Below are positions 53,565 to 59,660 of a stretch of 64,000 nucleotides of DNA, one piece after another. The notes beneath the pieces were generated by a model. That model worked only from the letters and a program-made list of their open reading frames with translations, had not been told where the DNA came from and ran no database searches. The translations under genes and the position numbers were made by a program. The stretch's first letter is position 1, and the number at the start of each line of letters is the position of its first letter. The DNA is from Escherichia phage OliverMaurmann_Bas86: sequence record PQ850622.1. The stretch is one strand, 5' to 3'.

Positions 53565-55598
53565 TTAGTGTTTACCTTTACAGTAATCTGAATTACAGAT
53601 CACCCTGTTTTCTTTGTTCAGTGAGCAAGTTTCTGCATCACGCCACGGAATTTGTTTATAACAGACTGCACAAAACCCAATTGAAGTCCAGAGGGCTTTT
53701 GTAAACTCAGCTGTTCGTTGTCCATCGTAACTGACAACTGTTTTTCGGAGAGAGGTTGACTTTTCTGGAAATGTCTCCGCTTTCTCAGCGGGTACCTCCT
53801 TTGGGGCATTCTTTGGACCATAAACAGAGATGGCATAAGTATCACCACCACGTTTTTCCAAATACGAATTAGGAACATCTGCAAGTGTGATGTCCCCTGA
53901 ACGTTTTGCTGAGCTGACCATTACAATCATACGGCTAAGCATACGTTCATCAACACGAACAGCTACTTCAGGACGACGTGGGTTGGTTGTGTCTACTGCT
54001 TTAGTCCAAATATAACCTTCAGATAGAGTAACATTCTTTACTTTATCTTTGATTTCTTTGGAGCAGATATAACAAACGTCTTCACCACGAAGTTTACTCA
54101 TTTCGTTGTCAAACTCGAAATCAGTCTTGACTTCACCACAGATAGCACATACACCCAAAGGCACATCTTCTTCCTCTTCAGAGGTTTTAGATAACGCTTC
54201 GAAGCATTCTGGATGCCAGTATGCCTGATAAGCAAACACAGCCTTACGAGCATCTTTCCAGTCAATGTGCTTATCACAACCACCACAGTCACCATGAGAG
54301 TGAGATTCCCAGAACTTACGAGTGACTTCTACACCATTCTTAGTGATGAAGGAGTCCTCTGCATCAAAAGGGATATCATCATCAAAATCAGCAGTAGTGC
54401 TTTGAGGCTCCTTATCTGTAGCATCAACAAACAGCCCTGAAGTTAGTACGAGGCGAATCATACTGTCCACTTCGGAGATACAAGCGATTGTCCCGCGATA
54501 TACTACCTTTGGGTTTTCAAGAGCCTTAAGATATTCATCTTTGGCTACGTTGTGAACATCCCCTTCGACATACTCTTGGGCTTTATCATCGTAGATGTAA
54601 CCAACCATCTTACCACGATCTGTGTTGTTATAAGCATGGAACTCGTGAGGAGTAATATCCACACGACCATCACGACGATAAGGAAGACCACGATCGGCAG
54701 CCAGTTTGTTCTGGTCTTCAATCGCTTTACGACGACGAATGTCTCCGCTTGTCACGCCGGGCTTGTCGTCTTTGTTTCCGTAAATGTCGCTTGTGCTGCT
54801 GCTTGGTTTGTTTGTCTGTTGGTTCTGATAAAGAGAGGAGTTCGAGTAATAGCCGCCCCAGCGACTCGTTACCGTAAAAACCGGAAGCTTGTGCTCCACC
54901 TCTTGAACCAGAGTCATACGACTGTTAGACACATCAAAGATATACTCAGTTCCCACTTTACACTCGAAGTGGTCATTGATACGGTTCTTGTGGGATTTAG
55001 AACGCTCTAAAATCCACATAAGCATAGCTTCTTCAGAAGCCCCAAACCAATCCAAACCACAGCGGGCTAGGTGGAAAGGACGCTCATCATTACGGATAAT
55101 GTGAAGCGTGTTGTCTTTAGCATCATGCCAAATCAAAGTGAATGCACCATCCAGTTTTTGGATAGTCTCTGCTGCTCCAATGGTGTTAATTGAGTGGCAG
55201 ATGTTTTCACTATCAACTTCGAAACGCTTACTGTCAGGAAGGAGATCTTGATCTAACAGGGTTCCATTATGAACCAGAGTAATATCCCCGTGAGTAAATG
55301 GGTGAGCATTTCGAGCATTGACAGCCCCACGAGTGGCATGTCGGCTGTGACCAACAATCCACGAAGGAGGAACTACGTAGTTCGTAAGCCCTTTGGTAAT
55401 ATTTGTATATTCTGTCTGGAGCATAAAAGCATAAGAAGGAAGAGCTTCTTTATAAGAGAAGACTTGCTTTTCACCTTTACGCTGACCAAACACACCAGTT
55501 GAGTGCTGTCCACGGAAAACACCAGCATACAGAAGTTGGTTGAAAATGTCCAAATCTGCTGAGGTCATGTTGCCGCCAGCTAATACGATACCACAAAT
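53565..55598 (-). CDS. Class-II (Ntn-type) glutamine amidotransferase domain protein with Cys-rich C-terminal region; predicted ATT start
   Basis: IVGHSRHATRGAVNARNAHPF resembles the GlmS-type motif. Frame is open 10 codons upstream of the ATG, encoding (start)-CGIVLAGGN; ATT at 55598-55596 sits 7 nt after AGGTGGA. Confidence 0.75.
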   Translation of the reverse strand: MCGIVLAGGNMTSADLDIFNQLLYAGVFRGQHSTGVFGQRKGEKQVFSYKEALPSYAFMLQTEYTNITKGLTNYVVPPSWIVGHSRHATRGAVNARNAHPFTHGDITLVHNGTLLDQDLLPDSKRFEVDSENICHSINTIGAAETIQKLDGAFTLIWHDAKDNTLHIIRNDERPFHLARCGLDWFGASEEAMLMWILERSKSHKNRINDHFECKVGTEYIFDVSNSRMTLVQEVEHKLPVFTVTSRWGGYYSNSSLYQNQQTNKPSSSTSDIYGNKDDKPGVTSGDIRRRKAIEDQNKLAADRGLPYRRDGRVDITPHEFHAYNNTDRGKMVGYIYDDKAQEYVEGDVHNVAKDEYLKALENPKVVYRGTIACISEVDSMIRLVLTSGLFVDATDKEPQSTTADFDDDIPFDAEDSFITKNGVEVTRKFWESHSHGDCGGCDKHIDWKDARKAVFAYQAYWHPECFEALSKTSEEEEDVPLGVCAICGEVKTDFEFDNEMSKLRGEDVCYICSKEIKDKVKNVTLSEGYIWTKAVDTTNPRRPEVAVRVDERMLSRMIVMVSSAKRSGDITLADVPNSYLEKRGGDTYAISVYGPKNAPKEVPAEKAETFPEKSTSLRKTVVSYDGQRTAEFTKALWTSIGFCAVCYKQIPWRDAETCSLNKENRVICNSDYCKGKH

Positions 55599-55675
55599 TT
55601 TCTAATCCACCTGAAGGGTAAACCCTTTCATCTAATTAACCTTTAAATGCGCCCTGTATAAGAGCGCCCGTTGTG

Positions 55676-56776
55676 TTACAGCAGTCGTTCTAATTGCATT
55701 TCCAGAAGGTCTGGAATATAACCAGTGACGTTATCATCACTGCTACCTGATTCACGCATCAATGCAAACATGTGACGAATTTCACGAACCGTTGCGATTC
55801 GAGTGCTTTCAATCTGAGGGGTGTAGTAGGTCATGATCTCTTCGTAGACACTGTTGGCATTACCGCGCACATATCCCAAGAAACCATAGAAGTCATTCAT
55901 ATCACGTAAGTTGATAAGGACTTCACCATCAGGGCCAGTCTGTTGCACACGAACACGACCAACCAAAGTCACAGATTGCTCACGACAGAAGAGAATATCA
56001 CGAGCAAGACGATACCCTTCAGTGAGATCACTGTCTCTTGGAGTATAGTCTAGGGGTAGATGTTGAATCATAGGAGCGAAGCGCAGCTCATTCAACTTCT
56101 CAACATAAGCTTCATTGTCTAAATCTGCATATTCAACAGCCAGTTTCTTGAGAACCAAGAAGCGGTTGACCAGATTCAGAAGTTGGCTCTTTTTCCACTT
56201 CGGCTCTGAGATACGGAACTCAACAGAACCAAATTGAGATAGAGGCAAAAGATTAAGGGAGGTATATTTATCCCAGCTATTAACAAGAGAGTGGAAGAAA
56301 GCTTCCCCGTCTCGGTTGAACGCTGACGAAGCATTCATAACTTGTGCTTGAACGACAGCAAAAGCTGGACAGAAGTTGCTACGATAGCGATGGTATCCAG
56401 AACATTTGAACATCATCTTTTCATAGAACGTCCATCCAAGAATAACTTTCTTAAGGATGTTACTATCAGCGTCACGCATATCCATATGAACATGAGTGGA
56501 GCAGCGCCAAGTTCCCTCGGCTCCAGAATCCTGTACTGCTTCACTCAGATTGTTAATAGCACGAAGTAATTCTTCACCGTTGTAAGGTCGTGCACATACT
56601 AATTCACAACCATCACGAAGAGAGCCATCTTCAGTACAAACCCACATATCAGCGTCAATGTCAGTTGTACCTTCGACTTCTAACTCAATACCAACACCAC
56701 ACTGAAAAGCAATACTTGGATGCGGTTCAGATAAGCGAGGGTTACGGTATCCAAAAACTTGTGCTACGGTTGTCAT
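55676..56776 (-). CDS. Glutamine synthetase-like amidoligase (carboxylate-amine ligase)
   Basis: 366 aa; GIELEVEG, STHVHMDM, GSVEFRISEP. Confidence 0.55.
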   Translation of the reverse strand: MTTVAQVFGYRNPRLSEPHPSIAFQCGVGIELEVEGTTDIDADMWVCTEDGSLRDGCELVCARPYNGEELLRAINNLSEAVQDSGAEGTWRCSTHVHMDMRDADSNILKKVILGWTFYEKMMFKCSGYHRYRSNFCPAFAVVQAQVMNASSAFNRDGEAFFHSLVNSWDKYTSLNLLPLSQFGSVEFRISEPKWKKSQLLNLVNRFLVLKKLAVEYADLDNEAYVEKLNELRFAPMIQHLPLDYTPRDSDLTEGYRLARDILFCREQSVTLVGRVRVQQTGPDGEVLINLRDMNDFYGFLGYVRGNANSVYEEIMTYYTPQIESTRIATVREIRHMFALMRESGSSDDNVTGYIPDLLEMQLERLL

Positions 56777-57408: not shown

Positions 57409-58218
57409 TTATACAATCTGGAGTTTAGAGGAGAATTTATCCGCTTCTTTAACATCGTTGCTGTTGATGATGTTATGAAGCTTTTCGATTGGAAGACGAG
57501 AGTGAAGTGACATCAACACTTCCATATCACAGCCTTGAACAACCTTATCCACTTGCTCATAAACAAACTTGCGGGTTGACTTCTCACCAATCCAGAAGTT
57601 AGAAAGAGAACGATATTCAATACCGTAGTCCTTGTAACGAATAGCAGAAGCCTTTCCGTACAACTCTTTACGACGAGTGTCTTTATCCATGATTACAGCT
57701 GGCAAGGACAGGAAGTAATCACACAGCACACCCAACATCATTTGAGTTTGTCGATTGATCTCCAAAGTTCCAGAGACACCGAGGTGCACATGGCCCCCAG
57801 CAGTACGCAAACCTTTATCGGTTGCGACTGGTGAAGGGTTCTTTTGTCCAGTGAAGGCGTTGAAATCAGGAGTACAGCCAAATACAAAAGCTGACGGATG
57901 GAATGATTCAAGCTCTTCTGAAGTGAACACATGAGAGCTAATCCCAAGCGCTGCTTCCAGACCACGATCATTCAGGATTTTGTTAGTCAGATCAATACCG
58001 CGCTGAATATTATCATCAAACGCTTCAAACCCTTTCTGTGGGTTAATATCAAACTCAGCCAGAACGTTGTCTTCTTGAAGACGAACATCAGGAGCCAGAT
58101 CAATTTTGTTATCTTTAGAACATCCCAGCTTACCAGCCACAGAGGTGATAATACCGGAAGCAGTACGAACAAACATTTCCGGATCCGACCCTATTAAGAA
58201 TTTACGTTTAGTAGTCAT
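57409..58218 (-). CDS. Second GS-like COOH-NH2 ligase (phage amidoligase type)
   Basis: 269 aa; GSDPEMF and GGHVHLG. Confidence 0.5.
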   Translation of the reverse strand: MTTKRKFLIGSDPEMFVRTASGIITSVAGKLGCSKDNKIDLAPDVRLQEDNVLAEFDINPQKGFEAFDDNIQRGIDLTNKILNDRGLEAALGISSHVFTSEELESFHPSAFVFGCTPDFNAFTGQKNPSPVATDKGLRTAGGHVHLGVSGTLEINRQTQMMLGVLCDYFLSLPAVIMDKDTRRKELYGKASAIRYKDYGIEYRSLSNFWIGEKSTRKFVYEQVDKVVQGCDMEVLMSLHSRLPIEKLHNIINSNDVKEADKFSSKLQIV

Positions 58219-58685
58219 GCTTTAGTCCAACCTTTATGAGATAGATAGTTTTTAAATCTGCCACTGTGCACAGCGCCCATGTGGCCTTGATGTAAGTCGT
58301 TGCTTCTACAGAAGTCTCTAAGATTGTATATTGTTACAACCTCGCCATCTGGAGATCTAAACTTCCAAAATCTAGCATTCCCTTTCACAGCGTTTTCTTC
58401 ACTGGTCAGAAGTTGGAAATTACTTGGGTGGTTATTAAGTTTATCGCCATCGATGTGATCAACAGTCATACCATCCGGAATAGGCCCAATAAACAATTCA
58501 TACATAAGTCTATGTAATAAAAAGTTCCTTGTTATCTTTTCAGGAGCCTGAACTGTTGTAAACTTAAGATAACCATCTTTATCAGGAAACAGTTTCCTCT
58601 GTTTCCCTGTTCTTGCATGGAATATACTACCGTCTTCGAACACCAAGAAGGTAGCAACTCCGACTACTAACTCCCTAAATTCCAT
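58215..58685 (-). CDS. HNH homing endonuclease inserted in amidoligase cluster
   Basis: 156 aa; HRLMYELFIGPIPDGMTVDHIDGDKLNNHPSNFQLLTSEEN. Confidence 0.75.
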   Translation of the reverse strand: MEFRELVVGVATFLVFEDGSIFHARTGKQRKLFPDKDGYLKFTTVQAPEKITRNFLLHRLMYELFIGPIPDGMTVDHIDGDKLNNHPSNFQLLTSEENAVKGNARFWKFRSPDGEVVTIYNLRDFCRSNDLHQGHMGAVHSGRFKNYLSHKGWTKA

Positions 58686-58709: not shown

Positions 58710-59660
58710 TTAGTCATTGTAATACTCCACGAGTTCATCAAAAAGGGAAACAACACGAGCACCAGCTTCTTCTGGTGTCATTGAGGAAGGTACTGCTTGC
58801 ATCAGTCGTTCGATAAAACTGCGAACAGTGATTCTGTCCATACGCTGATCTAATACTTCTCGCTTGTGACCTGCACAAGTTGACCAGAGACGCAACCACT
58901 CACTCATACTTTCATAATGGTCAGGGTCTTGGTCACGACGGCGTGCCATACGACGGAGAACTCCATCATTATGGTTTCGTACATAACCATCTCGGTTATC
59001 ATCAACACCGAACACATTCTGAACCCATACGTTTTCAGAAAATTCATCAGTGGTGCAAATTAGTGGCAGAAATGCAATTGCACTCATGTCACCATCAAAA
59101 TAAGTCGCTGCTGACTCATCGGTTGAGTCTACGTCATTACTATAACACCAGCGACCAAAGAAGTTACGACTTAAACCAGCTAAGCGTAGAGCTAAACCGA
59201 TTCGTTGTCGCTTAAGCAACTCTTCCTTGTCTTGTACGCCTTCCTGAAGGAACTCCATTCCATTAAAATCACCATCCAAATAGCTACGGATGGTCATTAG
59301 TCCAGTAAACACCTTGTCTGCTGGATGGTTTCGAAGGTTCACGGCAATGGAGTTCACCGAAGTGACAGAGAACATATCTTTATAGCAAGACATTGAGTTA
59401 AAAATGTCTGTTGCTTCAACTAAAGCTCTTTCGATATCTTTAGCCGGCACGCCATAAAAATTGTGAGGCCAGAAGTTAATAACTTCAATTTCTGAAGTTC
59501 TGTCACGAAGGCTTGTTCGGTTACGACTTTCACCGTTAATGTCTGTAACAGAATACATGTGCATACAGTTAAAAGTACCAAAGCAAGCTCTTCCTTTGAA
59601 CACTGACTCACCGAAATCCTCTGCCGGTGTTACCGGAGCAATCGATGCGGAGATTGACAT
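58710..59660 (-). CDS. Hypothetical protein within amidoligase cluster
   Basis: 316 aa ORF. Confidence 0.45.
   Translation of the reverse strand: MSISASIAPVTPAEDFGESVFKGRACFGTFNCMHMYSVTDINGESRNRTSLRDRTSEIEVINFWPHNFYGVPAKDIERALVEATDIFNSMSCYKDMFSVTSVNSIAVNLRNHPADKVFTGLMTIRSYLDGDFNGMEFLQEGVQDKEELLKRQRIGLALRLAGLSRNFFGRWCYSNDVDSTDESAATYFDGDMSAIAFLPLICTTDEFSENVWVQNVFGVDDNRDGYVRNHNDGVLRRMARRRDQDPDHYESMSEWLRLWSTCAGHKREVLDQRMDRITVRSFIERLMQAVPSSMTPEEAGARVVSLFDELVEYYND

Follow-up and report, generated by a model that had tools for sequence, protein, structure and literature searches.

The stretch analysed here, hereafter the window, comprises 64,000 nucleotides of Escherichia phage OliverMaurmann_Bas86 (PQ850622.1), a phiEco32-like coliphage (Gordonclarkvirinae, Suseptimavirus), and the gene in question encodes a predicted class-II glutamine amidotransferase of the N-terminal nucleophile (Ntn) type whose start codon appears to be ATT. 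The amidotransferase region is 99.9% identical to those of vB_EcoP-101114UKE3, IME267 and MLP3. The gene lies on the minus strand, a point on which a preliminary description of this DNA was silent, and the leader features below are all given on that strand. The corrected coding sequence, delimited by the open reading frame (ORF) and its translation, by Pfam and by profile alignment, occupies 53565–55598 and comprises 677 codons from ATT, including the stop. Read 5' to 3', the strand around the start is ATG AAA GGG TTT ACC CTT CAG GTG GAT TAG AAA ATT TGT GGT ATC GTA TTA GCT GGC GGC AAC ATG ACC. The ATT at 55596–55598 is the inferred initiation codon, which initiator tRNA would read as AUU, and the TGT of the catalytic Cys1 follows directly at 55593–55595. 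The ATG picked by ORF callers (55566–55568) lies ten codons further downstream and most likely encodes an internal Met11.

The leader is compact. A Shine–Dalgarno (SD) sequence, AGGTGGA (55606–55612), stands exactly 7 nt (TTAGAAA) before the ATT and forms a predicted duplex of −7.2 kcal/mol with the 3' end of 16S rRNA; in divergent relatives with the same block it reads AGGAGGA. The frame is shut on its 5' side by a TAG at 55602–55604, 3 nt ahead of the ATT, and the same TAG terminates a putative mini-ORF of nine codons (MKGFTLQVD*, 55602–55631), which is in frame with the amidotransferase and has a weak SD of its own (−3.8 kcal/mol). A 5-bp hairpin, AAGGG-TTTA-CCCTT (55614–55627; −4.6 kcal/mol in RNAfold), abuts the SD region, its 3' end falling 15 nt before the ATT. 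Both the hairpin and the mini-ORF had been missed in the preliminary description. These elements fall within an invariant 47-nt block at 55599–55645. Upstream of the mini-ORF ATG, the order along the minus strand is the TAA stop of an amidoligase gene, a stem-loop GCGCTCT-TATAC-AGGGCGC (55649–55667) and ATTTAAAGGTTAATTAG. The stem-loop, predicted by RNAfold, lies just past the Amidoligase_2 gene (55676–56776), whose stop codon is 77 nt before the ATT; it resembles a terminator without a T-run, was not called by the terminator scan, and lies in a region that is variable in relatives. Scans for sigma-70 promoters and terminators called nothing in the leader, and an Rfam scan at permissive E-values returned no relevant family and no glutamine riboswitch. 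Folded as a whole, the 121-nt leader was no more stable than shuffled sequences (z=0.14), only the local hairpins being notable.

The assignment of the product rests on several concordant profile searches. In the Pfam scan both GATase_6 (53.7 bits, cut-off 27) and GATase_7 (25.1 bits, cut-off 25) passed, and GATase_4 (22 bits) fell under its cut-off of 23. A search of PDB profiles matched GlmS at E=3e-13, with matches spanning the glutaminase domain only, and a family profile of 13 sequences aligned the Cys encoded in the window with Cys1 of mature Escherichia coli GlmS (1xff) and PurF (1ecb), and also with 1jxa. Across these 13 diverse homologues C2, R29-G30, H110-N111-G112 and D129-S130 are invariant, and the motifs align with those of GlmS. 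Class-II amidotransferases hydrolyse glutamine at Cys1 after removal of the initiator Met, and in the window the Cys comes first only if translation starts at ATT. The 677-codon gene product is thus classified, by sequence, as a class-II amidotransferase. With GlmS, PurF and AsnB it shares the N-terminal Cys nucleophile, the R-G, H-N-G and D-S motifs and, by profile, the fold family. It differs from them in being a stand-alone glutaminase domain followed by a Cys-rich C-terminal extension of ~430 aa, and in being encoded within a cluster of amidoligase, COOH-NH2 ligase and ATP-grasp genes. The name used in RefSeq and in the BASEL collection, L-glutamine-D-fructose-6-phosphate aminotransferase (GlmS), looks wrong: because the Pfam scan of the 677-aa protein found no sugar-isomerase (SIS) domain, the label is not supported. 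The C-terminal extension (53565–54870) contains many CxxC pairs, and its sole Pfam signal is a sub-threshold LIM match. The orthologue in phage SU10, gp85, has been detected by mass spectrometry with 9 peptides and 23.7% coverage, in a table that lists no N-terminal peptide (PMC4281155).

Comparison with orthologues bears directly on the choice of start codon. Between the in-frame stop and the Cys codon there are just two codons, AAA and ATT, so that ATT alone among near-cognate starts would place Cys at position 1. Eight orthologues that are 37–58% identical (Proteus phage Privateer, Cronobacter A24, Vibrio SJSY21, Salmonella SeKF_80, Aeromonas LAh_9, Pantoea TacPo2 and two IMG/VR contigs) carry ATG-TGY-GG at the exact position of ATT-TGT-GG in the window, and 67 of 80 unselected viral homologues agree with them. 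Within the phiEco32-like sequences, all differences in codons 2–9 are synonymous third-position changes (TGT/TGC, GGT/GGC, GCT/GCA, GGC/GGT/GGG, GGC/GGT/GGA), and over codons 2–10 variation remains almost entirely of this kind; the stretch is therefore translated in the amidotransferase frame. Initiation at the downstream ATG would instead yield a product beginning MTSADLD, lacking Cys1 and acting either not as a glutaminase or through another nucleophile, with the ten preceding codons forming an untranslated leader. This has in its favour a canonical codon, chosen by ORF callers and in many GenBank records, and a weak GGCGG match 5 nt upstream (−4.8 kcal/mol, against −7.2 kcal/mol for the ATT site). 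However, the ATG is not conserved, being CTG in phiEco32 and CTC in KBNP1711, neither of which has another start nearby. Moreover, the ten codons in question match orthologue N-termini residue for residue (A24 begins MCGIVLAGGN), they vary synonymously, and the Cys, the Gly and the other catalytic motifs are invariant in the family. We regard a start at this ATG as very unlikely.

Every comparative test made here favours ATT and none favours ATG, and AUU is, on this evidence, very probably the physiological start. The preliminary description had proposed initiation at ATT with Cys at position 1 from the letters alone, and the orthologue starts, the Cys1 alignment, the non-conserved ATG11 and the codon signature all bear it out; the comparison with related phages that it called for places their starts on the same codon. 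Its reading of ATT-TGT-GGT-ATC-GTA is exact in stop and coordinates once placed on the minus strand, its AGGTGGA is found 7 nt upstream (55612–55606), and the frame is indeed open ten codons above the ORF-track ATG, with TGT directly after ATT and the TAG two codons before it. Its statement that the ATG has no SD was nearly right, apart from the weak GGCGG match. Its remark that ATT starts are rare and usually inefficient agrees with what is established for AUU in general. The features by which AUU starts are recognized coincide here: the position of the orthologue start, the lack of a canonical in-frame start back to the upstream stop, a functional SD spacing and conservation of the AUU.

Other start codons close to the ATT were also considered. 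An out-of-frame UUG (+2, opening a 39-codon ORF) and GUG (+4, 4 codons) overlap AUU-UGU-GG at 55592–55596 and could compete with a weak AUU. As true starts, the UUG and GUG inside AUUUGUGG were rejected, since they open only these short ORFs in other frames. The mini-ORF ATG was likewise rejected as the ancestral start, because the same TAGATGAAAGGA occurs in Cronobacter phage A24 as the SD region for a genuine ATG further downstream.

The leader and its ATT are strongly conserved. The 49-nt sequence TTAATTAGATGAAAGGGTTTACCCTTCAGGTGGATTAGAAAATTTGTGG, comprising leader, ATT and TGTGG, is ≥99% identical in 96 E. coli and Shigella phage records, and 29 listed records match it at 100%. The ATT itself is invariant in all 96 Gordonclarkvirinae records and in Aeromonas phage BUCT695 (Grimontviridae). 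A comparison of 14 distinct phiEco32-like sequences shows no polymorphism in any of the 47 leader columns (−47 to −1) and none in the ATT, the edges of the block being sharp; 58% of columns vary in the 3' end of the upstream gene, and in the enzyme codons 123 of 147 third positions (84%) are polymorphic against 21 of 147 second positions. The idea that ATG was changed to ATT by an inactivating mutation or an assembly error, in a gene now decaying, could draw on the poor performance of AUU, which in reporters initiates at ~1–2% of AUG (bioRxiv 10.1101/063800). It is contradicted by conservation in 96 independent genomes, by the purifying selection evident in these codon positions, by an ORF intact at 677 codons whose protein is detected in SU10 (PMC4281155), and by recurrence of the same ATT before intact ORFs in other lineages, and it is extremely improbable. 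The sequencing error that the preliminary description had named as a possible refutation is excluded, the 49-nt block being shared by 96 independently sequenced records.

Such invariance also raises the possibility that the 47-nt leader is conserved mainly for another role, as an operator, as a phage promoter or transcript 5' end, or as an endonuclease-immune DNA site, with ATT merely tolerated as the start. Every nucleotide is invariant, loop and spacer included. BUCT695 shares ~60 nt of the leader with two substitutions (TTTA to TTAA in the loop, GGTGG to GGCGG in the SD), although its enzyme is closer to that of the ATG-start phage A24 (67% identical) than to that of the window (57%). Endonuclease genes cluster at the upstream junction of the amidotransferase gene, and Grimontviridae leaders carry AAATGTAAAT, which resembles the gp36 promoter tAATGTATAtA. 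On the other side, nothing in the leader matched Rfam or was called as a sigma-70 promoter or terminator, the gp36-like motif of the window is degenerate (AAAGGTTAATT), and the hairpin varies in sequence between lineages while keeping its position, which points to a role at the RNA level beside the SD. We consider this explanation rather unlikely.

The gp36-like motif deserves a separate remark. In Grimontviridae orthologue leaders (L016 and L044–L050; loci are denoted by L and a number) TTTAAATGTAAAT stands ~25 nt before the ATG and resembles the phiEco32 gp36-dependent promoter motif (PMC4281155). The version in BUCT695 (L007) is AAATGTAATAT, and the degenerate version of the window lies at 55640–55650. 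An active motif would place transcript 5' ends approximately at the 5' base of the hairpin. The gp36 motif AATGTATA itself has seven copies in the window, none of them near the amidotransferase gene.

The same initiation region recurs outside the phiEco32-like phages. An exact IMG/VR search with the longer leader returned phiEco32-like contigs only, and a shorter pattern was needed. In a metagenome scan with CAGGNGGATTAGAAAATNTGYGG, in which the third base of the start codon was left free, all 13 matches had ATT. Six of them (L030, L032, L034, L036, L037 and L038) stand before strongly diverged enzymes that belong to three additional lineages; those with enough sequence to compare (L032, L036 and L037) are 30–42% identical to the window enzyme and to each other. 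A 23-nt block is common to all six loci, and the sequence upstream of it differs. Among 80 unselected viral homologues from IMG/VR, the start codon was ATG in 67, ATT in 11 and ATC in one, with one odd case and no GTG or TTG. The ATT and ATC cases outside the phiEco32 group (L055, L063, L074, L075, L082, L102 and L113) have hairpin-GGAGGATAGnnnn-ATT or close variants, and other non-ATG leaders have a GGAGGA SD at 6–8 nt spacing. The arrangement is also present in a cultured phage, Klebsiella phage KpnP_VR7901 (L123), as AAAGCC-ACA-GGCTTT-CGGAGGATAATACT-ATT-TGC-GGA, where the GenBank coding sequence starts 17 codons downstream.

A hairpin is found in all 17 dereplicated non-ATG leaders, its 3' end 11–15 nt before the start, with a median of −4.6 kcal/mol; hairpins of −3 kcal/mol or better occur in 5 of 67 ATG leaders. 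This difference (Mann–Whitney p=4.6e-13) and the stronger SD duplex of non-ATG leaders (median −9.4 vs −6.4 kcal/mol, p=0.0016) are to be read with the phylogenetic non-independence of the compared sequences in mind, so that the p-values overstate the evidence. Energies of individual sequences were compared with the ATG group, because the hairpins occur in different registers with loops of 3–8 nt and do not suit a single covariation structure line. Their position is kept and their sequence varies across lineages: L034 (CATGT-CAAGA-ACATG) and L037 (CCTGA-CAAGA-TCAGG), for example, have a common loop, with two compensatory pair changes between their stems. The non-ATG lineages are scattered over a neighbour-joining tree at 10 or more separate positions, and the closest relative of such a lineage is often one with an ATG start (L074/L103, 75% identical; L113/L070, 72%; L082/L059, 60%). 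By this comparison, the AUU site of the window reads as one copy of a recurrent module of hairpin, strong SD, ~7 nt, AUU or AUC and UGY GG, present in at least 10 lineages.

Two homologues from these searches stand apart. L056 (IMG/VR 3300025276_000050) has ATG TGC TGT GGA (M-C-C-G), in which an additional Cys codon precedes the conserved Cys-Gly. In Escherichia phage 172-1 (NC_028903.1, H119) the glutaminase domain is matched by tblastn in two pieces, which may reflect a frameshift or an indel.

Taken as a whole, the best explanation is that a class-II amidotransferase is started at AUU 55598–55596 by means of this recurrent module, which we consider likely. The SD AGGUGGA, 7 nt upstream, would place the 30S subunit, and the 5-bp hairpin directly 5' of it would form part of the initiation region, where it may have a helper role, for example by stabilizing the SD–anti-SD complex at the ribosome platform. 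Initiator tRNA would read AUU as fMet, after which deformylase and methionine aminopeptidase would expose Cys1 as the catalytic nucleophile. By analogy with infC, output may be low and sensitive to initiation factor 3 (IF3), and by analogy with thrS-infC, reinitiation after the UAG 3 nt upstream may contribute.

Reinitiation might be more than a contribution, with AUU used mainly by ribosomes that have just terminated at that UAG, at the end of the mini-ORF or, in relatives, of an endonuclease ORF; this is a variant of the AUU start and not an alternative to it. The geometry of stop, 3 nt and AUU is that of the thrS-infC junction, UAA GGU AUU, where about half of initiation has been attributed to reinitiation (PMC3592434). 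The mini-ORF is conserved in the 96 genomes and in BUCT695, and HNH ORFs in L032, L034 and L038 end at the same TAG. Nevertheless, L037 has the identical 23-nt block and no ORF ending at its TAG, members of the GGAGGATAGnnnnATT group have the TAG in a different frame, where it often terminates no ORF, and the SD of the mini-ORF is poor. Both substitutions in the BUCT695 version (MKGLTLQAD*) are non-synonymous, which suggests that constraint on the mini-ORF acts at the RNA level and not on the peptide. A predominant role for reinitiation is possible, but we judge it unlikely.

A further route to a free Cys1 would be read-through of the TAG from the mini-ORF ATG, giving a longer precursor that cleaves itself. 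Self-processing is established among Ntn enzymes, one example being the loss of an 11-residue propeptide by Bacillus subtilis PurF. Being in frame, the mini-ORF would provide a 12-residue pro-sequence, and the endonuclease ORFs of L032, L034 and L038 are in frame as well. Against this, a tRNA search of the 64-kb window found no tRNA genes, hence no suppressor tRNA. In-frame stops occur without an upstream start codon in L037, L055, L074, L082 and VR7901, the SD spacing fits AUU, and read-through as the sole route would be very inefficient. It has only a slight chance of being correct.

AUU starts have few precedents. The only confirmed AUU-initiated genes of E. coli are infC and pcnB (bioRxiv 10.1101/063800), and in another system AUU performed six- to eight-fold below AUG (PMC3592434). 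The phage gene is like infC and pcnB in its probable AUU start within the E. coli translation system together with an SD, and in infC the stop is likewise exactly 3 nt before AUU (UAA GGU AUU against UAG AAA AUU) (PMC3592434). It differs in that its function is unrelated, there is no sign of IF3 autoregulation and a hairpin abuts the SD. Unlike theirs, its initiation region recurs before highly diverged homologues and is linked to homing-endonuclease genes. A parallel in another organism and protein is ebpA of Enterococcus faecalis, where an ATT start was predicted in silico and verified experimentally, databases put the start at a downstream ATG and the rare codon attenuates expression (PMC4447247). 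Both cases thus involve a rare ATT predicted while databases use a downstream ATG; the ebpA start has been verified by experiment, whereas the phage start is deduced but pinned to one codon by the Cys1 requirement.

The module has a recurrent neighbour. Immediately 5' of the block, L030 (HNH_3 with AP2), L034 and L075 have HNH_3 ORFs and L038 has a homologue, and in L032, L034 and L038 the stop of the endonuclease ORF is the very TAG preceding the ATT. When the 1200 nt upstream of every locus were searched by tblastn with the endonuclease ORFs, matches were obtained in L007 (BUCT695), L030, L032, L034, L036, L038 and L075 and at no ATG locus. Counted by lineage, in our own grouping, endonucleases accompany 5–6 of 14 non-ATG lineages and 0 of ~60 ATG lineages (Fisher p 1e-4 to 2e-5). 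Endonuclease remnants are present upstream in L007, L036 and L074; L036 corresponds to L038 minus the endonuclease, of which the last 18 codons are left, and the enzyme common to L030 and L032 is accompanied by a different endonuclease in each.

L074 is the most informative of these loci. It keeps 'gaggttaat ATG TGC GGA ACT...TAA' 140 nt upstream, which matches the start 'gaggttaact ATG TGT GGA ATC' of L103, its endonuclease-free, ATG-start relative. The old start is followed by a helix-turn-helix-like remnant and then by a restart of the form hairpin-SD-ATT-TGT-GG. We read this order as direct evidence, at the sequence level, that a gene interrupted within its first four codons was repaired by acquiring a new initiation region with an AUU start. 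Further relics were sought. In L034 (~−520 to −480) and L038 (~−530 to −490 from the ATT) a good sigma-70-like promoter (TTGACA/TTGACT, 17 nt, TATAGT/TATACT) ends 2 nt short of ATGTGTGGTA, and the SD of the endonuclease itself comes next; this element may be what remains of the former amidotransferase start, or it may belong to the endonuclease cassette. Matches to ATGTGYGG upstream of ATG loci were rejected as relics, lying as they do inside upstream coding genes, and L074 remains the only firm one.

The module has probably spread by endonuclease-associated recombination and been kept after loss of the endonuclease. Precedents exist in phages, where free-standing homing endonucleases reside in or beside genes, as with mobE in Aeh1 nrdA, mobA at T4 gene 60 and seg43(25) in gene 43 of phage 25 (PMC2988022). 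In the last case an RNA hairpin lies 'immediately upstream of the RBS' (ribosome-binding site) and does not sequester it (PMC2988022), so that a hairpin just before the RBS is found in both systems. The amidotransferase loci resemble these systems in having HNH ORFs at conserved sequence that encodes a catalytic site, in their variable presence among close relatives and in a host gene that needs a new downstream translation start. They differ in that the insertion falls at codons 1–4 and leaves no functional 5' gene fragment, in that the restarted gene uses AUU or AUC, and in that the restart persists after endonuclease loss, the window included; homing itself is putative here.

A more specific proposal, which we offer tentatively and think somewhat less probable than its opposite, is that hairpin, strong SD, stop, 3–4 nt and AUU together form a portable 'restart cassette' at the 3' edge of HNH genes that invade the ATG-TGY-GGN-A codons, replacing the native ATG and remaining under strict selection after endonuclease loss, as in the phiEco32-like phages. 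If so, AUU would be a legacy of a selfish element and not a regulatory choice of the enzyme, the cassette might shield the locus from re-cleavage, and the hairpin would be a general device letting bacterial ribosomes use AUU efficiently.

Several observations weigh against parts of this account, in addition to the non-independence of the sequences compared above. The UUG (+2, 39-codon ORF) and GUG (+4) that overlap the putative AUU start out of frame are stronger start codons, the SD of the window at −7.2 kcal/mol is weaker than those of other non-ATG leaders, and invariance of all 47 leader nucleotides exceeds what hairpin, SD and start codon need. As regards the endonucleases, the window has none adjacent and no relic of an old start: the 77-nt gap between amidoligase and ATT contains no endonuclease, and the nearest HNH gene is 2.6 kb away. 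The BUCT695 remnant lies upstream of the shared leader and not between relic and module, and the 8-mer ATGTGTGG upstream of the L034 and L038 endonucleases is only 2 nt past a sigma-70-like −10 box, which leaves its status as a relic uncertain. An endonuclease origin of the window leader is therefore extrapolated, and for this leader in particular we see endonuclease-associated spread as nearly an even matter, leaning slightly to the negative.

The nearest HNH gene itself, an HNH_3 gene at 58215–58685 (minus strand), lies between a COOH-NH2 ligase gene (57409–58218) and a 316-aa ORF (58710–59660). It is also found in SU7 and is absent in the 99.7%-identical Bas87, where the flanking genes abut. 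It is a presence/absence polymorphism of a free-standing endonuclease in the gene cluster of the amidotransferase.

Annotators had chosen the ATT start before, and the reading did not originate with the preliminary description: it already stands in the records of phiEco32 (EU330206, CDS phi32_83; 2008), SU10 and BASEL phage Bas87. The SU7 and ECBP2 records start at ATG11, that of KBNP1711 starts further downstream, and most of the 96 Gordonclarkvirinae GenBank records have a downstream ATG or no feature over the ATT, giving proteins without the catalytic Cys. A full-text literature search, whose coverage excluded the original phiEco32 genome paper, found no paper discussing the ATT start. What appears to be new is the family-wide hairpin-SD-AUU module tied to homing endonucleases, of which we found no earlier description.

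As a bare claim, the gene is a further, already annotated, putative member of the small class of AUU-initiated genes. Gene finders disallow ATT, and most of the 96 genomes of this phage group, together with KpnP_VR7901 and others, are annotated with a truncated protein without the catalytic cysteine; predictions of function or structure made from such records start from the wrong protein. The locus also provides a naturally selected candidate AUU initiation region in coliphages held in culture collections (phiEco32, SU10 and BASEL Bas87–94). Its hairpin and the natural variants thereof constitute a system for studying how a strong SD and a neighbouring helix compensate for a poor start codon and for IF3 proofreading. 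Finally, the link to endonucleases suggests that a selfish element can alter the start codon and ribosome-binding site of its target gene, and that the altered site can persist once the element is gone.

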